Assembly: GCA_902533795.1 (NCBI GenBank)
Contig: CACAND010000005.1
Location: 847 to 64,846, forward strand
Direction of reading: 5' to 3'
Length of the DNA stretch: 64,000 nt
Source of the DNA: an uncultured Candidatus Actinomarina sp.
GTDB lineage: Bacteria; Actinomycetota; Acidimicrobiia; Actinomarinales; Actinomarinaceae
Shown here in pieces: positions 19,628 through 53,916 of this stretch. Below the pieces are notes generated by a model that saw only the letters and a program-made list of their open reading frames with translations, was not told the DNA's origin and searched no databases. The translations under genes were made by a program, and so were the position numbers. Position 1 is the stretch's first letter, and every line of letters starts with the position of its first letter.

Positions 19628-19638
19628 ATAAAACTTAA

Positions 19639-19670
19639 CCGGGAGTAGAATTCTACTCCCGGTTTTTTTT
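19639..19670 (+). terminator. rho-independent terminator after tuf
   Basis: ccgggagtaga-attc-tactcccgg hairpin followed by T8. Confidence 0.85.
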
Positions 19671-42568: not shown

Positions 42569-43559
42569 ACAACTCATATTAGGGTTTGAAACAAGCTGTG
42601 ATGAGACGGCCATAGCTTTAATGAAGGGTGATGACTTGTTGATAAACAAGATTTCGTCACAGGTCGAAATTCATGAAAAATTTGGTGGTGTAGTTCCTGA
42701 AGTAGCATCTAGAGCACATGCTGAAATGATACGAAATCTTTTTCATTCATCAATAAACGAATGTGGGATTGATATAGGTGAAATTGATATTGTAGCAAGT
42801 ACTGATGGTCCAGGTTTATCAGGCAGTCTTGTGGTGGGCTATAATTTTGCAAAATCAGTAGCATGGGCCCTTCAGAAGCCCTTTTATGCAGTAGATCATA
42901 TGGTTGGTCATCTTAGTGCACCTCTTATTGAACATCCAACCATGGATCCGCCATTTTTATCATTACTTGTGTCTGGTGGTCATACACAAATTGTGTTTGT
43001 AGAAGAATGGGGAAAATATAATTTATTAGGTTCAACAATCGATGATGCAGCAGGTGAAGCATTTGATAAATTATCTAGATTTTGTGGATTTGGTTTTCCT
43101 GGTGGACCAGCAATACAGAAAATATCTGAAGGCGGTGATCCAGATAAAGTCAAACTTCCAAGACCAAAGACTTCAAATAAATTTGATTATTCTTTTTCAG
43201 GGTTAAAAACAGCTGCAGTTTATTTTTTACAAGGACTAACTGACGATGACAAACTTTTGAAAAAAGATTTTGCCGCTTCATACCAAGAGGCAATTGTTGA
43301 TTCTTTGATGAATATATATGAGAAAGCTGTAACTGAAACAGATGTAACTAATCTATCAGGAGGAGGAGGAGTAATGGCAAATACGCGACTTCGTGAAAAA
43401 ATTCAAACTTTTGCTGAAAAAAATGATAAAAATCTATATTTACCATCACCTAAATTATCTACTGATAATGCTGCAATGATTTGTGTAGCTGCAAAAAATA
43501 ACCTTACAACTAATGAGATGAACATCGAAGATATAAGGCTATCATCAGTAATTTCTTAA
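42558..43559 (+). CDS. tsaD: tRNA N6-adenosine threonylcarbamoyltransferase TsaD
   Basis: 333 aa, metal-binding HMVGHL and SGGV motifs. Confidence 0.93.
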   Translation: MQNEQLILGFETSCDETAIALMKGDDLLINKISSQVEIHEKFGGVVPEVASRAHAEMIRNLFHSSINECGIDIGEIDIVASTDGPGLSGSLVVGYNFAKSVAWALQKPFYAVDHMVGHLSAPLIEHPTMDPPFLSLLVSGGHTQIVFVEEWGKYNLLGSTIDDAAGEAFDKLSRFCGFGFPGGPAIQKISEGGDPDKVKLPRPKTSNKFDYSFSGLKTAAVYFLQGLTDDDKLLKKDFAASYQEAIVDSLMNIYEKAVTETDVTNLSGGGGVMANTRLREKIQTFAEKNDKNLYLPSPKLSTDNAAMICVAAKNNLTTNEMNIEDIRLSSVIS

Positions 43560-43639
43560 CAATTTAAGAAAAATGAATACCTTTATAAACAGAACTATAT
43601 TAAATTCAAAACGTAGAAAATTTTAGGAGAAAAAAAATT

Positions 43640-43933
43640 ATGAATCTTAAACCACTTGGAGATAGGGTAGTTGTAAAACCACTATCAGAAGAAGATATGA
43701 AAACTCCATCAGGTATATACATTCCTGATACAGCAAAAGAAAAACCTCAAGAAGGTGAAGTTATTGCTGTGGGGCCTGGTGAAACCAATGACAATGGAGA
43801 AAAAATTAAGCCTGATGTGAAAAAAGGTGATAAAGTTGTTTATTCAAAATATGGTGGAACAGAAATTAAAGTTGACGGAGAAGAATACTTGATACTTTCA
43901 AGTAGAGATATTCTCGCAGTAGTCGGAAAATAA
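43640..43933 (+). CDS. groES: co-chaperonin GroES
   Basis: 97 aa, mobile loop plus YSKYGGTE. Confidence 0.95.
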
Positions 43934-43936
43934 TAG

Positions 43937-45577
<1,641 letters not shown>

Positions 45578-45592
45578 CTTAATCATATTTTT

Positions 45593-45628
45593 AAAAAAAA
45601 GAGTGGACAACAACCACTCTTTTTTTTT
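45593..45628 (+). terminator. symmetric rho-independent terminator after groEL
   Basis: A8-gagtgg-acaacaa-ccactc-T9; A/T tracts on both sides. Confidence 0.85.
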
Positions 45629-45641
45629 ATCATTATATGTC

Positions 45642-45983
45642 ATGATTGGAATAAGAGGTGCAATAGCATCAGTTGAAAACAGTGAAGAAAATATATTAGA
45701 ATCATCAAAAATTTTATTTACTGAGATTATAGAACAAAACAATTTAGTAATTTCTAAAGTTGTTTCGGTACTATTTACAGTTACAAAAGAATTGAATGCT
45801 GCTTTCCCGGCCAAAGCAATTAGAGATCTTGGATATGACCAAATACCTGCACTTGATTCTTTAGCACCAGACATTGAAGGTGATTTATTAGGTTGCATTC
45901 GAGTATTAGTTATATATCAAGATAATATCGAACCAAATCATGTGTATTTGGGTGAAGCAAAAAATTTACGTCCTGATAGATAA
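45642..45983 (+). CDS. aroH: AroH-class monofunctional chorismate mutase
   Basis: 113 aa MIGIRGAIASVENSEENILE...AFPAKAIRDL...CIRVLV...HVYLGEAKNLRPD, collinear with B. subtilis AroH; ATG 45642, the track start 45603 lies inside the terminator. Confidence 0.85.
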   Translation: MIGIRGAIASVENSEENILESSKILFTEIIEQNNLVISKVVSVLFTVTKELNAAFPAKAIRDLGYDQIPALDSLAPDIEGDLLGCIRVLVIYQDNIEPNHVYLGEAKNLRPDR

Positions 45984-46024
45984 AAACTCTTTTCAAAACA
46001 AAATTACGTGCTAGCATTATCACA

Positions 46025-46066
46025 ATGAAAACTAACACATACTTTTACTTTAGAGCGCATATATAA
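46025..46066 (+). promoter_or_regulatory. candidate aromatic-rich leader peptide (MKTNTYFYFRAHI)
   Basis: 13-codon mini-ORF with adjacent Tyr-Phe-Tyr-Phe codons, 25 nt upstream of a terminator hairpin and upstream of the shikimate/Phe/Tyr cluster. Confidence 0.45.
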
Positions 46067-46090
46067 GCTGCCCTAAAGTTACATTGTGTC

Positions 46091-46118
46091 AAATCGGGCA
46101 AAAGCCCGATTTTTTTTT
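46091..46118 (+). terminator. intrinsic terminator / attenuator hairpin in the DAHP-synthase leader
   Basis: aaatcgggc-aaaa-gcccgattt followed by T8, ending 1 nt before SD aggagg. Confidence 0.75.
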
Positions 46119-46130
46119 AGGAGGAACAAA

Positions 46131-47150
46131 TTGATAGTAGTTATGAAACAAGCAGCTACAGAAGAAGATATAGAGAAAGTAAAAGTAAAAGCTATTGAAC
46201 AAGGTCATGAGCCAAAAGTACTTTATGGTGTTGAAAGGACTGTCGTTGCAGTGCATGGAAAAGTTATCGAAGATAACAGAGGTGTAATGCGTTTACTTGA
46301 CAACGTACACGAAGTTATCCCAATTGGGAGATCTTACAAGCTTGCAAGTAAAACATATAAAGATACAAATACAGAAATAAAGATAAAAGATCTTACTATC
46401 GGAGGTAAAGAACTTGCTTTTATAGCTGGGCCAGACAGCGCCGAATATAGAGAGCAGACTTTAGAGACTGCAGAAGCTGTAATACAAGCAGGAGGAAATG
46501 GCCTTAGAGGAGGAGCTTTTAAACCTAGAACCTCACCTTATAGTTTTCAGGGTTTAGGAGAAGAAGGCTTAGTATTGTTGAAAGAGGCAGCTGATAAACA
46601 CAAACTCCCTTTGTTTAGTGAAATTATGGATATCCAACATTTACAAATGATGGAAAATTATGTAGATGTTCTTCAAATCGGAGCAAGAAATATGCAAAAT
46701 TTTAAGTTATTAGAAGCTGTTGGTGAATCGAAGCTTCCTGTTTTATTGAAAAGAGGTATGAGTGCAACTCTTGAGGAATTGCTTTTAGCTTCTGAATATA
46801 TATTAAGCAGAGGAAATGAAAATGTTATTTTATGCGAGCGAGGAATTAGAACTTTCGAAACTGCAACAAGAAATACATTTGATATTAATGCAATACCTTA
46901 TTTGAAGATGAACACTCATTTACCTGTTATTGCTGATCCAAGTCACGGAACTGGAGCAAACAACTTAGTAGCCCCTATTGCATTAGCTTCAATAGCTGCA
47001 GGAGCAGATGGGTTATTAATCGAAATTCATCCGAGACCGGATGAAGCTTTATGCGACGGCCCTCAAGCCTTAACGCCAGTAGAGTTAGTGGAGCTTGGTA
47101 AGAAAGTAAGTTTAATGGCTGACGTTGTGGGTCGATCTTTAACATTATGA
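46131..47150 (+). CDS. class I-beta 3-deoxy-D-arabino-heptulosonate-7-phosphate synthase with N-terminal ferredoxin-like regulatory domain
   Basis: TTG start 6 nt after aggagg; core LRGGAFKPRTSPYSFQGLGEEGL as in B. subtilis/Thermotoga DAHPS; the track start 46086 would read through the terminator. Confidence 0.85.
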   Translation: MIVVMKQAATEEDIEKVKVKAIEQGHEPKVLYGVERTVVAVHGKVIEDNRGVMRLLDNVHEVIPIGRSYKLASKTYKDTNTEIKIKDLTIGGKELAFIAGPDSAEYREQTLETAEAVIQAGGNGLRGGAFKPRTSPYSFQGLGEEGLVLLKEAADKHKLPLFSEIMDIQHLQMMENYVDVLQIGARNMQNFKLLEAVGESKLPVLLKRGMSATLEELLLASEYILSRGNENVILCERGIRTFETATRNTFDINAIPYLKMNTHLPVIADPSHGTGANNLVAPIALASIAAGADGLLIEIHPRPDEALCDGPQALTPVELVELGKKVSLMADVVGRSLTL

Positions 47151-47980
47151 TCAAAAATGTAAAAATAATTGGCCTTGGATTAATGGGTGCAAACTTAGGA
47201 ATTAATCTAGTCAATAAAGGACTAAATGTTTATGGAGAAGACATTAATCCTGATGTAGAGAAAAGAGCAGAAAAGTTTGGTATAAATGTTAAATCAAATG
47301 CTGAAAAGTATGATCTGACTATTCTTTCAATGCCTATAAATAATATTATTTCTTTCTTATCAAAAGAACATGAGGTTGATAGATCTGAGTTGATAATTGA
47401 TATAGGAGGTACCAAAGAGTCGATTTGTGATTTAATGGACAATTCAAATATTCCTGCAATTGGGGGACACCCGATGTGTGGATTGGCTGATAATACAAAT
47501 TGGGAGCCACATCCAGAAATGTACAAAAATGCAACATTTCTTCTTTGCGAAACTAATTCAACTGATGATAAAGCAAGAGAAATTGCATCAGCGTTTATAA
47601 ATATTTTAGATTGTAAAGAAGTATGGATTGATAGAAAAAAGCATGATGAGATATTATCGATTACGAGCCATTTACCTCACTTGATAAGTTCTGCACTTGT
47701 GGGTATTGCTAAGAAGGATTATGAAATTGAAGAAATAATGGGATTAGCAGCTGGAGGGTTTGATGGGGCAACAAGGCTTACAAGGACAAACCCAGAGATG
47801 ATAATAGACATGTACAACTCAAACTCAAAAAATATAAATAATTTTCTTATCGCACTAATCGAAGAAATATCATCGTTGATGTCTTTACAAGAAAAAAATG
47901 AGTTAATTGACTATCTCACTTCATCAGTGGAATGGAGAAGAGCATTGTCAGATAAATTTGGAGAACGACCATTAAGTTAA
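47147..47980 (+). CDS. tyrA: prephenate (arogenate) dehydrogenase
   Basis: 277 aa, N-terminal Rossmann IIGLGLMGANLGINL. Confidence 0.8.
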   Translation: MIKNVKIIGLGLMGANLGINLVNKGLNVYGEDINPDVEKRAEKFGINVKSNAEKYDLTILSMPINNIISFLSKEHEVDRSELIIDIGGTKESICDLMDNSNIPAIGGHPMCGLADNTNWEPHPEMYKNATFLLCETNSTDDKAREIASAFINILDCKEVWIDRKKHDEILSITSHLPHLISSALVGIAKKDYEIEEIMGLAAGGFDGATRLTRTNPEMIIDMYNSNSKNINNFLIALIEEISSLMSLQEKNELIDYLTSSVEWRRALSDKFGERPLS

Positions 47981-48003
47981 AATTAAAATTATTTAGCAGA
48001 TTA

Positions 48004-49257
48004 TTGTCTGGTAATGTTGCTCTCATTGGAGATAAGTCTATTTCTCATAGAGCAATAATATTTGCTGCGTTAGCAGACGGAACTTCAAATATACAAAATT
48101 TATTAATGAGTGAAGACACAAAGGCTACCTTAAAGATAATTGAGCAAATGGGTATCGATATCAAGTTAAATGATACAGTTTCCATAACTGGTAAAGGGCT
48201 TAACGGCCTGAAAGAACCAAAAAAAGATCTTAATGCCATAAATTCAGGAACCACTGCAAGATTATTAATTGGTCTATTATCTAAACAAAATTTTTCATCA
48301 ACATTAATAGGAAGCCCCCAGTTGAATAAAAGACCAATGAACAGAATTACAGATTTGTTAGTTCAAAACGGAGCTTCAATTAACATAAAGAATTCTTTTC
48401 TTCCGATTAAATTTAAATCATCAGAATATTCATTTAATTTTCAAAATACTCTTGTTCCCAGTGCTCAGGTTAAAAGCGCCTTAATTATTGCTTCTTTGTA
48501 CCATAGTGAACCAACGTTAATTGAAGAAACAGTTGCCACAAGAGATCATACGGAAAGAATGTTAATTGCGATGGGTGCAAACATACTTAGACTTGGTAAC
48601 ACCATTACTGTATCTCCAACAAATAATCTTAAACCTTTAAACATTTCAATACCTGGTGATATATCGTCAGGAGCATTCCTAATTGCACTTGGCGTGCTCA
48701 AAGGAAAAGAAATAATACTTGAAAACATGTTAATTAACGAAAGGAGACTTGGGTTTGTAAAGATTTTAAAGAGGATGGGTGCAAATATTGAAATTGTGAA
48801 CATTAATGAAGAAAATAATGAAGTAATTGGAGATATTAAGGTAAAAAAATCAACTCTAAATGGTACGACTGTGACAAAAGAGGAAGTGGCCGATTTTATT
48901 GATGAAATTCCAATTTTCACTTTTTTAGCATCCCAAGCAATTGGTATTACAAAACTTGTTGGAGCAGAAGAACTGAAAGTCAAAGAATCAGACAGGTTAG
49001 ATGTTATGAAAAATTTTATTCTTGAATTAGGCGGGAAAATTGAAGTTTATGATGATGGATTTGAGATTACAGGCATTCAAGATCTCCAAGATGGCTTTAT
49101 TAAAACTTTTGATGATCACAGAATTGCAATGACAGCAATAATTGCCAATATAGCTCTTGGAAAAAAGATAATCCCTGATAATAAAGAATGCATTAAAGAT
49201 TCATATCCTTCTTTTTTTGAGGATTTAAAAGAATTAGGAGCTGAGATCAATGAATAA
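48004..49257 (+). CDS. aroA: 3-phosphoshikimate 1-carboxyvinyltransferase (EPSP synthase)
   Basis: 417 aa; LIGDKSISHRAIIFAALADG. Confidence 0.9.
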   Translation: MSGNVALIGDKSISHRAIIFAALADGTSNIQNLLMSEDTKATLKIIEQMGIDIKLNDTVSITGKGLNGLKEPKKDLNAINSGTTARLLIGLLSKQNFSSTLIGSPQLNKRPMNRITDLLVQNGASINIKNSFLPIKFKSSEYSFNFQNTLVPSAQVKSALIIASLYHSEPTLIEETVATRDHTERMLIAMGANILRLGNTITVSPTNNLKPLNISIPGDISSGAFLIALGVLKGKEIILENMLINERRLGFVKILKRMGANIEIVNINEENNEVIGDIKVKKSTLNGTTVTKEEVADFIDEIPIFTFLASQAIGITKLVGAEELKVKESDRLDVMKNFILELGGKIEVYDDGFEITGIQDLQDGFIKTFDDHRIAMTAIIANIALGKKIIPDNKECIKDSYPSFFEDLKELGAEINE

Positions 49258-50038
49258 TTTTGGCGTTCTAGGTTGGCCCCTTGAAAAGACATACTCTCCC
49301 TTTATTCACAAATCTTTATTTGATATGACTCAGCTTGAAGGTAATTATGAATTATTAAAAATTGAGAACATAGATGAGAAAAATATTCAAGATCTTAATA
49401 AGAGACTAGACGGATACAATATCACAATCCCACATAAAGAAAATATTTTAGGATTAAATATAAATTCAATCGTAGATGAACATGCACAATCAATAGGAGC
49501 AATAAATACTGTTAAATCAAGTGGTGAAAGTATTGAATACTATAACACTGACTATGAAGGCTTCTTATTTTTCTTAAATAAAATAGATTATGATTGGAAA
49601 GATAAAAATATACTTATTTTAGGCAGTGGTGGAAGCTCAAAAGCAATTAGGTATGCATTATCAAGTAATTCATCGAGTATACATATTGCTAGCAGAAATG
49701 TTACTGAGGATACTATTTCTTATAAAGAGGCAGAAGATATTGGATCGGAGATAAATTTTCTTATCAATACAACTCCTATTGGTATGTCGCATCTGAATAA
49801 CCTTTCTCTGGACTTAGATGTAAACAAATTTACTAACCTAGATTTATTTTTGAATATAGGATATGGAAATACTAGTAATTTTTTTAAACCATTAGTTGAT
49901 TCTGTGAATTCATACAATGGTATTGGAATGCTCATATGTCAGGCAATCTTATCATTTAACATATGGACAAACCTTAACTTACAAGTATTAGATATATATG
50001 ATGAGTTATACAAATTATTGGTGAACAAAAATGATTAG
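49250..50038 (+). CDS. aroE: shikimate dehydrogenase
   Basis: 262 aa; FGVLGWPLEKTYSPFIHK, ILGSGGSSKA. Confidence 0.85.
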   Translation: MNNFGVLGWPLEKTYSPFIHKSLFDMTQLEGNYELLKIENIDEKNIQDLNKRLDGYNITIPHKENILGLNINSIVDEHAQSIGAINTVKSSGESIEYYNTDYEGFLFFLNKIDYDWKDKNILILGSGGSSKAIRYALSSNSSSIHIASRNVTEDTISYKEAEDIGSEINFLINTTPIGMSHLNNLSLDLDVNKFTNLDLFLNIGYGNTSNFFKPLVDSVNSYNGIGMLICQAILSFNIWTNLNLQVLDIYDELYKLLVNKND

Positions 50039-51206
50039 ATTTTTAACTTCAGGCGAGAGTCATGGGCCAGAGTTAACAGGGATAATTGAGGGATTACCTT
50101 CGGGTTTTCTTGTTACAAAAGAATACATAGACAGTTTCCTTCAACGCAGACAAAAAAGTTTGGGTTCTGGTGGAAGAATGAATATTGAATCAGATCAGGT
50201 AGAGATTTCTTCGGGAATAATTAATAATCTCACAACTGGTGGACCAATTACATTAAAAATAAAGAACAACGATTGGAAAAATTGGAAAGATAAAGATATT
50301 GATCCATATGTAGTTCCTAGACCTGGTCATGCTGACCTAGTTGGAACTGCAAAGTATGATGCAAAGGATATTCGCCTAATTCTTGAAAGATCAAGTGCTA
50401 GGGAAACTGCAATGAGATGTGCAATTGGAGCAATAGCTGCACAAATACTTGAAAATTTTGACATACATATTTGTGGATATGTTTCAGGAATTGGATCACT
50501 GGAGTATATATATAAAGGAACAGATGGCATTAAAAATCTGCAAAATAAAGTTACAGAATCCCCAGTGTCGTGTCCAGATGACAAAATTTCCAAAGAAATG
50601 GAAAATGAAATAAAACTTGCAAGAAAAAAGAAGGATACTCTTGGAGGTTCTATTACCACAATTGCAACAGGCGTACCTCCAACACTGGGTAGTTTCGTTC
50701 ATTGGGATAGAAAATTAGATGCAAATGTGGCGCGAATTTTTATGTCTATACAAAGTGTAAAAGCAGTAGAAATTGGTAATGGGATAGAAGTATCTAAAAA
50801 TTATGGAACTGAGGTTCAAGATCAGTATTTCCTTGACCAGGAAAACATTAAAAAAGAATCAAATAATTTAGGAGGTTTTGAAGGAGGGATGACAAATGGG
50901 GAGGATATAGTTGTAAAAGCTTACTTAAAACCGATCAGCACAACTTTGACTCCGATCAAAAGTATTAATTTATCAACTAAAAATGAAACAGAGACAGTAT
51001 ATGAACGATCTGATACCTGTGCCGTCCCGAGAGCTGTCCCCATATTTGAGAGCGCAATGGCATTAGAAATTCTTAAGAATTTACTAATAAAAACTGGGGG
51101 AGATAGCAAAAAAGAAATAACAAAAAACTTTGAAAACATTTCAAAGCTGCATTTAGATGAGTTTGATCTAGATAATAAAACCTGGAACATGAAATATGAA
51201 ACATAA
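50031..51206 (+). CDS. aroC: chorismate synthase
   Basis: 391 aa; FLTSGESHGPELTGIIEGLP, RPGHAD. Confidence 0.93.
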   Translation: MIRFLTSGESHGPELTGIIEGLPSGFLVTKEYIDSFLQRRQKSLGSGGRMNIESDQVEISSGIINNLTTGGPITLKIKNNDWKNWKDKDIDPYVVPRPGHADLVGTAKYDAKDIRLILERSSARETAMRCAIGAIAAQILENFDIHICGYVSGIGSLEYIYKGTDGIKNLQNKVTESPVSCPDDKISKEMENEIKLARKKKDTLGGSITTIATGVPPTLGSFVHWDRKLDANVARIFMSIQSVKAVEIGNGIEVSKNYGTEVQDQYFLDQENIKKESNNLGGFEGGMTNGEDIVVKAYLKPISTTLTPIKSINLSTKNETETVYERSDTCAVPRAVPIFESAMALEILKNLLIKTGGDSKKEITKNFENISKLHLDEFDLDNKTWNMKYET

Positions 51207-51705
51207 TAATATTTACCTCGTTGGATTTATGGGTTGCGGAAAAACATCTGTATTGAAAAAAATAAGACAAAAGATTCAAAGTAATACTTTTGATCTAGAT
51301 GAAAATATAGAAAAGCAACATGGAAGTATAAGCAAAATATTCGAATCAAAAGGCGAAAAATATTTTCGGCAAATCGAATTAGAAACATTCCAAATGTTAC
51401 CCAAAAATGATTCTGTAGTTGCTCTTGGAGGAGGATCTTTAGAAATAAAAAATATATTTGATGAGCTTAAAAATAACGGATTTACTTTTTATCTGAAAGA
51501 TACTTTTGAAAATTTATGGAATCAGATCCAAAATACTGAAAGGCCTTTAGTAAAAGAAGGAAAAGACAAAATTTATAAACTATTTCAATCAAGAGAAGAT
51601 TTATACAATCAATCAAATCATATTTTAGAAATTTCAGATAAAAAAATTAAAAATATTGCTGAAATCATAATTAAAAATAGTTGGTTAAAAAATGAAGTTA
51701 TCTGA
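51196..51705 (+). CDS. aroK: shikimate kinase
   Basis: 169 aa; P-loop GFMGCGKTS. Confidence 0.85.
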   Translation: MKHNNIYLVGFMGCGKTSVLKKIRQKIQSNTFDLDENIEKQHGSISKIFESKGEKYFRQIELETFQMLPKNDSVVALGGGSLEIKNIFDELKNNGFTFYLKDTFENLWNQIQNTERPLVKEGKDKIYKLFQSREDLYNQSNHILEISDKKIKNIAEIIIKNSWLKNEVI

Positions 51706-52690
51706 AATACATTATTCAAATAAATTTGATGATCTTGACAGTCAACTAAAAAATTTTATCAATCAGGAGAAGCATGTAATATTTATTGATTCAAAGTTGT
51801 CTTCAATTATTAATCTAGATCCAAAATTTAAGATTTTTGAAATAGAAATTAATGAATCTACTAAAGATTTAAATACAATTCAAAAAATTTGGAAAATAAT
51901 GTTTTCAGAGTCGCTTGATAGAAGTTCAAAAATAATTGGGATAGGTGGAGGCGTGTTGAGTGACTTAGTAGGTTTTGCTACGAGCACCTTTAAAAGAGGG
52001 GCAAATTTATCGTTGGTTCCTTCAACATTCCTTGGTATGGTTGATGCAGCACATGGAGGAAAAACAGGGTTCAATAATGAATTTGGCAAAAACCAAATTG
52101 GCACATTCTTCATTCCAGAAAAAATATTTATTTGTACAGAGTTTTTAGATTCTATATCAGAAATTGAAATGAATAATGGAATTATTGAATCATTAAAGGC
52201 AGGCTTTTTAGGTGACAAAGAAATTATTGAAATGATATACCAAGATAAACTCAACAATCTAGAAGAAATAATTAAAAAAAGTATTCAAGTAAAGTACAAC
52301 ATTTTAAAAAATGACTTACGTGAAAGTAATGAAAGAATGTTTTTAAATTTAGGCCATACAATCGGCCATCTGATCGAAAAGGACTCAAATTATTCTATTT
52401 CTCACGGACAAGCCGTTGCAATTGGAATGTTAAAAGGGTTTGAAATATCGGAGAGTAAATTTAATCTTAATAGTTCAATCAGAGATGAATTTAAGTCATT
52501 TTTAAACAAACAGTCAATGAAAACGGAATACAGTTTCAATAGCAATCAATCAGAGTTAAAAGAGATAATTTCAAATGATAAAAAAGTGACAAGTGACGTT
52601 GTTAAATTTGTTCTTATTAAAAATATTCAAGAGCCAGTGTTAATTGACTTTTCGATTAACGACTTATTAGAGGTTTTAACCAATGCGTAA
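51692..52690 (+). CDS. aroB: 3-dehydroquinate synthase
   Basis: 332 aa; GIGGGVLSDLVGFA and metal ligands HTIGHLIE / HGQAVAIG. Confidence 0.88.
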   Translation: MKLSEIHYSNKFDDLDSQLKNFINQEKHVIFIDSKLSSIINLDPKFKIFEIEINESTKDLNTIQKIWKIMFSESLDRSSKIIGIGGGVLSDLVGFATSTFKRGANLSLVPSTFLGMVDAAHGGKTGFNNEFGKNQIGTFFIPEKIFICTEFLDSISEIEMNNGIIESLKAGFLGDKEIIEMIYQDKLNNLEEIIKKSIQVKYNILKNDLRESNERMFLNLGHTIGHLIEKDSNYSISHGQAVAIGMLKGFEISESKFNLNSSIRDEFKSFLNKQSMKTEYSFNSNQSELKEIISNDKKVTSDVVKFVLIKNIQEPVLIDFSINDLLEVLTNA

Positions 52691-53111
52691 AATAGTCATC
52701 ATTAATGGTCCAAATTTGAACTTTTTAGGTGAGAGAGAAATATCAAAATATGGCACTACAACTTATCAAGAGTTAGTTAGTGAACTTGAAGAACATGCAA
52801 AAAAAACTAATAATCTGGTTTTTTTTCAATCAAATCATGAGGGCGAAATCTGTGATTACATACAAAAAATAATTAATGAGAAAATTGATGGAGTCATAGT
52901 AAATCCTGGTGCCTACACCCATACAAGTGTTTCATTGAGAGATTCTTTGTTACTTCTTTCAGTTCCTATCATTGAAGTTCACATAAGTGACATAAAAGAA
53001 CGTGAATCGTTTAGAAAAACTAATTTAATTAATGACATTTGCGAGAAATCATTTATAGGTCATGGGGTTAATGGATATAAGATGGGTATAGATTATTTAA
53101 ATGAAAAATAA
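52683..53111 (+). CDS. aroQ: type II 3-dehydroquinate dehydratase
   Basis: 142 aa; IVIINGPNLNFLGERE, NPGAYTHTS. Confidence 0.9.
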   Translation: MRKIVIINGPNLNFLGEREISKYGTTTYQELVSELEEHAKKTNNLVFFQSNHEGEICDYIQKIINEKIDGVIVNPGAYTHTSVSLRDSLLLLSVPIIEVHISDIKERESFRKTNLINDICEKSFIGHGVNGYKMGIDYLNEK

Positions 53112-53916
53112 AAAAATATATTATCAAGGTTCAGAAGGTTCTTATTCAGAATCGGTTTTACTTGAAATGTTCCCAGATTCAGAATTAATTTCTTGTAAAA
53201 CTTTTCAAGATGTCTCTATAAATGCTTCAAATGATGGTTTTGGACTTTTGCCAATTGAAAACTCTCTCGTTGGAACTGTAATCGAGGCTTATGAAAGTTT
53301 AATTGAATACGAACTTGAAATATTTTTAGAAGTTAAAAAGAAAATTAATCATGCTCTAATTGGATTAGCAGGGACACAAAAACAAAATTTGAAAAAGATA
53401 ATTTCTCACCCACAAGCCTTACAGCAATGTAGTAAATATTTAAATAAACTAGACGTAGAATTACAACCAGTATTTGATACTGCAGGAGGTGTTTTAAGTC
53501 TACTTAACACTAAATCAGAAGAGATTGGAGCGATTGCAGGAGAGCATTTTGATAATGATGAAAGATTTACAATAATTGAAAAAAATATTTCAAATCATGA
53601 AGAAAATTACACAAGATTTTTTCTAACTGGAAAGACGCCACCACCGATTAAAGAAGATAAAAACCTTCGTTCAGCGATTCTGGTAGCACAAGACGAGCCA
53701 GGTTCTTTGTTGAAAGCTCTTACGGTCTTTGATGTACTTAAATTGAATTTGACTAAGTTAGAATCAAGACCAATTCTTGGATCCCCATGGGAATATAAGT
53801 TCTATGTCGATTATCAAAACTCTGATACAAAAATCGATCAGCTTCTAAAAGATAATTTAGGTCAAGTTGCAAAAGAATTTAAAATATTAGGAAAATACGG
53901 ATCAATTAATCTTTAA
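53101..53916 (+). CDS. pheA: prephenate dehydratase with C-terminal ACT domain
   Basis: 271 aa; PDT domain plus ACT (ESRP motif). Confidence 0.85.
   Translation: MKNKKIYYQGSEGSYSESVLLEMFPDSELISCKTFQDVSINASNDGFGLLPIENSLVGTVIEAYESLIEYELEIFLEVKKKINHALIGLAGTQKQNLKKIISHPQALQQCSKYLNKLDVELQPVFDTAGGVLSLLNTKSEEIGAIAGEHFDNDERFTIIEKNISNHEENYTRFFLTGKTPPPIKEDKNLRSAILVAQDEPGSLLKALTVFDVLKLNLTKLESRPILGSPWEYKFYVDYQNSDTKIDQLLKDNLGQVAKEFKILGKYGSINL

Follow-up and report, generated by a model that had tools for sequence, protein, structure and literature searches.

A conserved candidate leader-peptide attenuator upstream of the aromatic amino acid operon of Candidatus Actinomarina

The closest precedent for the element analyzed here is the aroR/aroF attenuator of Corynebacterium glutamicum (Neshat et al. 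2014, as outlined in passages of PMC11802643 and PMC4046766), in which aroR encodes a leader peptide with a Phe-Tyr-Phe motif upstream of the gene for 3-deoxy-D-arabinoheptulosonate 7-phosphate (DAHP) synthase, aroF (passages of PMC11802643, PMC4046766, and PMC3890552), and ribosome stalling raises transcription of the operon. In this study, we analyzed a 64,000-nt stretch of contig CACAND010000005.1 (assembly GCA_902533795.1, positions 847 to 64,846, forward strand; hereafter the window, to which all coordinates refer) from Candidatus Actinomarina, a low-GC, streamlined marine actinobacterium. Its 147-nt spacer between the chorismate mutase gene aroH and a nine-gene aromatic amino acid operon holds a promoter, a mini-open reading frame (mini-ORF) encoding MKTNTYFYFRAHI, a hairpin that we call P1, and a strong terminator adjoining the ribosome-binding site of a DAHP synthase gene. 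As far as the aroR accounts go, the likeness is close: both hosts are actinobacterial, both have a short peptide with adjacent Phe and Tyr codons directly before a DAHP synthase gene, and for Actinomarina we propose the same logic of stalling.

Other described systems share further parts of this design. The pheL-pheA and pheM-pheST leaders of Escherichia coli combine Phe-codon-rich leader peptides with a terminator and alternative hairpins, the combination that we propose for Actinomarina. Leaderless mRNAs make up about one-third of C. glutamicum transcripts and are common in Actinobacteria (PMC3890552), leaderless leader peptides are documented in Streptomyces for trpL, ilvL, leuL, and others (PMC8079986), and a passage of PMC4046766 cites an ilvB leader peptide that lacks a ribosome-binding site. 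The setting here is a lineage, the Candidatus Actinomarinales, whose uncultured members abound in the surface ocean and rank among the smallest free-living cells; the lineage is described as having a median intergenic spacer of 2 to 3 bp, two sigma factors, no two-component systems, and little regulatory capability (PMC7771536). A conserved 147-nt spacer is exceptional for this very reason. That main genomic description of the order mentions neither riboswitches nor attenuation nor aromatic amino acids (PMC7771536), and our literature search on Actinomarina and leaderless transcripts returned nothing, including no description of this element for the lineage. From the comparative sequence data presented below, we put the probability that the element is a ribosome-mediated (leader-peptide) transcription attenuator sensing charged tRNA-Tyr and tRNA-Phe at about 0.8.

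The leader reading frame and its promoter

The features of the spacer on which this proposal rests are the following.
45990 to 45995, + strand: -35-like hexamer TTTTCA (TTTGCA or TTGGCA in relatives), conserved in position and in its TTKNCA form
46009 to 46017, + strand: extended -10 element TGcTAGCAT (TGnTAnnAT), its T, G, T, A, A, and T invariant in 38 aligned leaders
46025 to 46066, + strand: leader mini-ORF MKTNTYFYFRAHI plus stop, 13 codons, with ATG at 46025 and TAA at 46064-46066; 42, 45, or 48 nt in relatives
46040 to 46051, + strand: candidate regulatory codons TAC TTT TAC TTT (Tyr-Phe-Tyr-Phe, codons 6 to 9), the proposed stall site; a block of at least four codons in relatives
46091 to 46118, + strand: intrinsic terminator, AAAUCGGGC, loop aaaa, GCCCGAUUU, and T9, called by two terminator scans, with conserved pairing
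46119 to 46133, + strand: DAHP synthase ribosome-binding site AGGAGG (46119-46124) and start codon TTG (46131-46133), the latter placed by sequence and by a Pfam profile that begins at residue 1

Relatives of this spacer came from two sources. A scan with the DAHP synthase protein as query, using one genome per species, returned 44 Actinomarina/Actinomarinales loci of 72 to 100% identity, and a scan of metagenomes in which the terminator (CGGGCAAANGCCCGNTTTTTT) was the sole criterion yielded about 25 further Actinomarina leaders besides many unrelated terminators. The pooled set comprises 70 loci with this terminator upstream of a DAHP synthase start, equivalent to 52 unique leader sequences. 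All 44 species-level loci have the same spacer architecture, and the support for the proposal that the aromatic cluster is controlled by ribosome-stalling attenuation, first made from the letters of this stretch alone, is comparative: mini-ORF, aromatic run, promoter, and terminator are kept in 52 of 52 unique variants. We looked among the 70 loci for relatives that retain the hairpin and lack an aromatic-rich mini-ORF, and there were none.

The 52 unique leaders encode 21 distinct peptides (plus one artefact of an upstream ATG), all of them open, and every peptide contains at least four consecutive Tyr/Phe codons in a fixed pattern: TAC, TTT, or TAT, then TTT, an optional extra TTT, TAC or TAT, and a final TTT. 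Tyr and Phe account for 4 of the 13 codons of the mini-ORF, compared to 6.2% of codons in the genes of the window. This pattern of change is what one expects of a translated ORF under selection for aromatic codons and not for a peptide product, in that (i) the length of the mini-ORF is 42, 45, or 48 nt only, all multiples of three, whereas its noncoding flanks vary in 1-nt steps (26 to 29 nt from the stop codon to CGGGC/terminator; 10 to 19 nt from the T-run to the start codon); (ii) where the first aromatic position changes from Tyr to Phe (TAC to TTT), two bases are replaced and the position is still aromatic; (iii) synonymous changes are found at Tyr (TAC/TAT), His (CAT/CAC), Ile (ATA/ATT), and the stop codon (TAA/TAG); and (iv) the N-terminal residues after Met-Lys/Asn drift freely (KTNT, KLNNT, KTVTT, NLNNT).

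Upstream of the ATG, the only invariant columns in the alignment of 38 distinct leaders are those of TGnTAnnAT, and the columns flanking it vary. The -35-like hexamer precedes the -10 element at a distance of 16 nt, and its TTKNCA form, kept in relatives, fits the ttgnca/TAnnnT SigA consensus reported for Corynebacterium (PMC3890552). The distance from the end of the -10 element to the ATG is 7 nt in 40 variants, 8 nt in 10, and 6 nt in 1 (51 of the 52 unique leaders), and transcription should start at the A of ATG 46025 or 1 nt before it. Because the invariant -10 element ends 6 to 8 nt before the ATG, translation of the mini-ORF probably takes place on a leaderless mRNA, and the frame-preserving indels likewise argue for its translation. 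At the sequence level, then, the putative initiation signal of the leader ORF is this promoter spacing and involves no Shine-Dalgarno (SD) sequence. The missing SD sequence had been counted as a weakness of the attenuator call; it is truly absent, and the geometry of a leaderless promoter would explain this. At the other end of the leader the T-run adjoins the SD sequence of the DAHP synthase gene, so no promoter can fit between the two, and every operon transcript must therefore cross the terminator.

The end of the mini-ORF has a conservation of its own. The His-Ile end (46058-46066) and the surrounding GCACAUAUAAG are kept in 52 of 52 variants through synonymous changes, which may reflect an influence on RNA structure or on how long the ribosome dwells at the stop codon.

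The element appears to be confined to the Actinomarina clade. Upstream of DAHP synthase genes outside the Actinomarinales (loci L042 to L065, from Ignavibacteria, Bacteroidota, other Acidimicrobiia, and Thermoleophilia), there was no leader ORF with an aromatic run followed by a terminator, and covariance model R1 had no match in the non-Actinomarinales loci and only one copy in the window. A separate homologue search with DAHP synthase listed proteins of at least 75% identity only and so did not reach relatives farther away.

RNA structures and the proposed switch

Two further features concern the RNA.
46035 to 46089, + strand: two-tier hairpin P1, a putative anti-antiterminator and possible pause hairpin, from minimum free energy (MFE) folds of all 38 leaders
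46069 to 46073, + strand: predicted antiterminator 5' strand UGCCC, partly within P1 and 3 nt after the stop codon, from the MFE structure of the masked state

Refolding of the spacer, which had been suggested as a check on the attenuator, gave P1 and the terminator; the folded 152 nt beat 200 of 200 shuffles (z = -3.6). P1 has an outer stem, ACACA (46035-46039) with UGUGU (46085-46089), and an inner stem, ACUUUAG (46047-46053) with CUAAAGU (46073-46079), and the aromatic codons sit within its 5' arm. The terminator stem, AAATCGGGC/GCCCGATTT at 46091-46112 with a 4-nt loop, has -13.4 kcal/mol in the second scan, and its 5' arm GGGCA (46096-46100) would also supply the 3' strand of the antiterminator. 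On the alignment, 94.5% of the cells of P1 and the terminator are standard paired, compared to at most 56.5% when the 3' partners are slid by 1 to 3 columns; the covariation score is 0.069 versus 0.053, and the score together with the count of double-change cells was reached by 0 of 500 shuffles. Across 37 distinct sequences, 100% of the terminator cells are paired, and one pair has changed at both bases, from U-A to G-C. Most of the P1/terminator core is uninformative for covariation because it is invariant, and the compensatory changes come from a divergent clade (L037, L160, L161, L182): this terminator change; an A-U to G-C change in the inner stem in L037, L160, and L182; and, in L037, a synonymous TAC to TAT change in the P1 stem that is offset by G to A in the partner strand. 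The outer stem differs in sequence by clade and is always present (ACACA/UGUGU, ACAAUAC/GUAUUGU, ACAACGUA/UACGUUGU, GAACAC/GUGUUU, UUGAACA/UGUUCAA). Of the two Tyr codons, TAC is the less used one in this genome, and its presence in the leader fits the need for its C to pair in P1. The same leader bases are thus under coding and structural constraint together.

Some other folds of the leader were encountered. In two closely related loci, L034 and L035 (leader at about 2900-2990), CUUUAG replaces CUAAAG in the inner 3' arm of P1 and breaks two pairs; the predicted fold moves to the register ACAUACU/AGUAUGU, and the ORF, GCCC, and terminator are unchanged. Pairing of CACAUAU, in the His-Ile codons, with the outer 3' arm of P1 is seen in some folds and was rejected, since that arm varies, CACAUAU is invariant, and the register is lost. 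Pairing of CCUAAAG with UUUUAGG at the junction of the U-run and SD sequence, possible on paper, was likewise set aside, as it has the wrong regulatory sign and is a trivial consequence of the P1 sequence.

The antiterminator is a prediction from folding. When 13 species were folded in a model of the stalled state, with the 5' arm of P1 masked and the 3' arm of the terminator absent, pairing of (U)UGCCC (46069-73) with GGGCA(A) (46096-46100) was the MFE structure in all 13, at -6.7 to -10.7 kcal/mol. GCCC is invariant and the two bases preceding it vary, so that the predicted antiterminator has 6 bp in 26 variants, 5 bp in 18 + 3, and 4 bp in 5.

We had started from a sequence-only reading of the spacer, and its description holds to within one base. 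The 13-codon mini-ORF with its Tyr-Phe-Tyr-Phe run ahead of a hairpin is present in the sequence as described. The hairpin with its T-run is indeed a strong terminator; the run is 9 nt long (46110-46118), not 8. No 1-nt gap separates it from AGGAGG, which follows directly, and the distance from the stop codon to the stem is 24 nt instead of 25. For the weak antiterminator suggested there, gggca was correctly placed at 46096-46100, tgccc lies one base earlier than given (46069-46073), and the pairing itself emerges as the MFE prediction of the masked, pre-terminator state in all species folded. Hairpin P1, which covers the aromatic codons and plays the 1:2 role, had been omitted.

Taken together, these elements suggest the following scheme, in which the site where transcription starts, the reading of the ORF by ribosomes, the kinetic race between the structures, and the response of the cell are inferred. 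A sigma-70/SigA-type promoter (TTTTCA, 16 nt, TGcTAGCAT) would start the RNA at or next to the A of ATG 46025, and hence a leaderless 13-codon ORF. With ample Tyr and Phe, the ribosome would reach the stop codon at 46064-46066, where its footprint would cover GCCC (46070-73); with no ribosome on the leader, P1 would sequester GCCC. In both cases, the terminator at 46091-46118 would form and transcription would end as a 94-nt RNA. If tRNA-Tyr or tRNA-Phe is poorly charged, the ribosome would stall on codons 6 to 9 (46040-46051) and hold the 5' arm of P1, leaving (U)UGCCC free to pair with GGGCA(A) before the 3' arm of the terminator exists, and once this antiterminator has formed, RNA polymerase would read through into the nine-gene operon. 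The ribosome footprint is roughly 28 to 30 nt, so a ribosome at codons 6 to 9 would end well before GCCC and one at the stop codon would cover it; this geometry of stall site, stop codon, and GCCC fits the classical attenuation model. The same hairpin would also end transcripts arriving from aroH, which should terminate there because they carry the mini-ORF internally, without an SD sequence.

Several observations weigh against this scheme. An aromatic-rich mini-ORF is not rare by composition alone: of the 1,055 ATG mini-ORFs of 6 to 30 codons in the window, 6 have four or more aromatic codons in a row. Nor is a terminator that abuts an SD sequence diagnostic by itself, because the same layout occurs between tuf and rpsJ, where a strong terminator (AACCGGGAGUAGAAUUCUACUCCCGGUU + T8, -21 kcal/mol, 19636-19670, + strand) lies 9 nt after the tuf stop codon and ends directly at the rpsJ SD sequence (GAGGA), with no leader ORF; there is no room for a promoter there, so the S10 operon would be read through this terminator or driven from inside tuf. 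It is thus conservation, not composition or layout, that lifts the Actinomarina leader above chance. The nucleotide conservation of GCACATATAAG (His-Ile-stop) exceeds what a simple stalling model needs, and cognate outer-stem arms differ modestly from noncognate ones (-6.05 versus -5.18 kcal/mol, p = 0.007, on nonindependent samples). The antiterminator is the weakest link. Its 4 to 6 bp enclose a loop of about 22 nt, its stability (about -7 to -10 kcal/mol) falls far short of that of the terminator (-13 to -15 kcal/mol), and covariation cannot support it because both of its strands are invariant. In every modeled state the terminator wins at equilibrium, so the switch would have to be kinetic.

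Among the alternatives, a protein- or ligand-operated RNA switch made of P1 and the terminator, worked by a TRAP- or PyrR-like protein or as a compact riboswitch with the ORF incidental, would account for the near invariance of the internal and apical loops of P1 (UACUUUU, GCACAUAUAAG, GCCC), which goes beyond the needs of a simple stall peptide, and would not depend on an antiterminator that is predicted to be weak. Yet an incidental ORF would hardly keep an aromatic residue through a two-base Tyr to Phe replacement, always retain its start and stop codons while TAA and TAG interchange, and change length in threes only next to flanks that vary by single nucleotides; the spacing from -10 element to ATG suits leaderless translation, no Rfam family matches at E values up to 10, a 94-nt leader is too short for a T-box, and the lineage has very few regulators (PMC7771536). 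We consider such a switch improbable.

We give similarly little credence to an independent 94-nt gene, for a small RNA or micropeptide, with the operon fed by unregulated leakage. The element does have its own promoter and terminator, its C-terminal His-Ile is conserved through synonymous changes, and attenuator-derived RNAs act in trans elsewhere, as described in a passage on rnTrpL of Sinorhizobium (PMC6614838). However, the N-terminal half of the peptide is poorly conserved, the aromatic run, its only strictly kept property, matches the products of the operon, and its place directly before the DAHP synthase gene is fixed in every genome; moreover, such a gene is compatible with attenuation and so is not a true alternative. 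An added role of this kind is a separate matter: that the His-Ile-stop end and the invariant loop GCACAUAUAAG carry a second function, on top of a hairpin that serves both as the aroH terminator and as the gate of nine genes and is in essence the sole transcriptional control of aromatic synthesis, in a genome that has two sigma factors and hardly any regulators, seems to us unlikely, though it could take the form of a nascent-peptide or termination pause that holds the ribosome over GCCC or of a trans role of the 94-nt RNA. Finally, a plain, somewhat leaky aroH terminator beside a chance frame in an AT-rich spacer would suit the lack of any other terminator after aroH, the compositional baseline, and the tuf-rpsJ layout, but is very improbable given an invariant extended -10 element and a -35 hexamer between the aroH stop codon and the hairpin at a fixed 6 to 8 nt from the ATG, an ORF, frame, and aromatic run kept in 52 of 52 variants with length changes in threes only, a P1 hairpin conserved with compensatory changes, and the persistence of the ORF down to 72% protein identity amid a diverging spacer.

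Gene neighborhood and significance

The genes on either side of the leader are as follows.
45642 to 45983, + strand: aroH, AroH-type (type I) chorismate mutase (Pfam CM_1, E = 4.9e-33), with its own promoter and no SD sequence
46131 to 53916, + strand: operon of DAHP synthase, tyrA, aroA, aroE, aroC, aroK, aroB, aroQ, and pheA, with Pfam matches for 9 of 9 proteins

The local gene order is groES-groEL, a terminator at about 45597-45628, aroH, the 147-nt spacer, and the operon, in a window of 29 to 37% GC. Two single-cell genomes of Candidatus Actinomarina encode a DAHP synthase 100% identical to the one in the window. The nine operon genes, closely packed or overlapping, encode DAHP synthase with an N-terminal ferredoxin-like domain, prephenate dehydrogenase, 5-enolpyruvylshikimate 3-phosphate (EPSP) synthase, shikimate dehydrogenase, chorismate synthase, shikimate kinase, dehydroquinate synthase, dehydroquinase II, and prephenate dehydratase, that is, the full common pathway to chorismate plus the Tyr and Phe branches, with no trp gene in the operon. 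A codon run of Tyr and Phe only matches an operon with these two branches and without Trp.

DAHP synthase itself is of the Thermotoga-like type (PF18152 + PF00793). Its start codon TTG 46131 lies 6 nt after AGGAGG, and its N terminus, (M)IVVMK, aligns with the Pfam DAHP_snth_FXD profile from residue 1. In the species-level genome set, it has no relatives between 72% and about 57% identity, and below this gap its nearest full-length relatives (about 50%; loci L042 to L061) belong to Ignavibacteria and Bacteroidota, not to other Actinobacteria; because these nearest full-length relatives are nonactinobacterial, there are hints that the gene (46131-47150) was horizontally acquired.

The start of aroH (MIGIRGA) and an upstream TATCAT/TATAGT element are conserved in relatives, and the first terminator that aroH transcripts meet is the hairpin of the attenuator. 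The groEL terminator hairpin (45597-45642, + strand) includes the -35-like TGGACA of the aroH promoter, and its T-run passes directly into the TATCAT -10 element; the hairpin is symmetrical (A-run, stem, T-run) and was called as a terminator on the minus strand too. The aroH ATG at 45642 lacks an SD sequence and lies 8 nt after the -10 element (8 to 11 nt in relatives), for which reasons aroH is probably leaderless or nearly so.

The metagenome scan also returned an element of similar build from a low-GC organism (L183:3032-3140, minus strand of the locus): TGTTATAAT, 7 nt, an ATG, and the mini-ORF MKINNVVQVVSYIHM, followed by a near-identical terminator (CCGGGCAAATGCCCGG + T7) and an SD sequence, upstream of a 28-codon ORF and isocitrate lyase/malate synthase genes. 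We first took it for a valine leader and rejected this in view of its neighbors, which lend no support to amino acid attenuation.

If the attenuator proposal is correct, a protein-free 94-nt sensor of Tyr and Phe supply would show how streamlined genomes may still regulate a costly pathway. The sensor would act alongside the ferredoxin-like domain of DAHP synthase itself, the homologue of which mediates feedback inhibition in Thermotoga. Annotators of the lineage would gain a concrete cis-regulatory feature, the aroR type of aromatic attenuator would be extended from Corynebacterium to a very distant, low-GC actinobacterial order, and the compact leaderless design would be useful for asking how short a working antiterminator can be.

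Comparison with known systems

Rfam does not include this leader. A search of all Rfam families at E values up to 10 over positions 43000-49000 returned nothing relevant (T-box, known riboswitches, Phe_leader). Membership in Phe_leader (RF01859) is ruled out, as the Actinomarina leader has no match at this threshold while the positive controls, E. coli pheL and pheM, score 132 and 75 bits. A T-box riboswitch, which usually controls aromatic genes in low-GC Gram-positive bacteria, is likewise ruled out, both by the missing Rfam match and by a transcript leader of 94 nt, compared to the roughly 200 to 300 nt of that class, whose leaders bear a specifier loop and a T-box sequence.

Compared with C. 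glutamicum aroR, where the effect comes from Phe limitation only according to the relevant passage of PMC11802643, the Actinomarina leader conserves both codon types. Its aromatic run is longer (4 to 5 codons), and the operon under control comprises the whole pathway plus tyrA and pheA. C. glutamicum AroF, which we presume to be of a different DAHP synthase type than the Thermotoga-like Actinomarina enzyme, adds a further contrast. The two leaders are likely of independent origin, a view based on a comparison with aroR by its Phe-Tyr-Phe motif and position only.

The E. coli phe leaders differ in having a 5' untranslated region with an SD sequence, in sensing Phe only, and in controlling a single enzyme gene or a tRNA synthetase, and the Actinomarina antiterminator is much shorter than theirs. 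The pheM peptide contains an FFYFS string in common with the Actinomarina variants MKLNNTFFYFSEHI, which is convergence. The leaderless leaders of Streptomyces and Corynebacterium (trpL, ilvL, leuL) have 12 to 18 codons from the transcription start and no SD sequence, with hairpins and a U-rich stretch before amino acid genes (PMC8079986), a build that we propose here as well. They sense Trp, Leu, or Ile/Val, whereas the Actinomarina leader would sense Tyr/Phe, and none of the eight Streptomyces lividans attenuators in PMC8079986 is an aromatic Tyr/Phe one. Further, the Actinomarina leader, unlike these, comes with a textbook U9 terminator from a genome of 33% GC.

The proposed logic is ultimately that of the E. 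coli trp attenuator with its 1:2, 2:3, and 3:4 pairings: strand 1 contains or directly follows the regulatory codons, a ribosome terminating at the stop codon covers strand 2, and 3:4 is the terminator with its U-run. In Actinomarina, this scheme would be compressed into an element of 94 nt in which strands 2 and 3 pair by 4 to 6 bp, the leader ORF is leaderless, and the hairpin doubles as the terminator of the upstream gene. The element is thus a lineage-specific addition to a well-known type of regulator and introduces no new mechanism.

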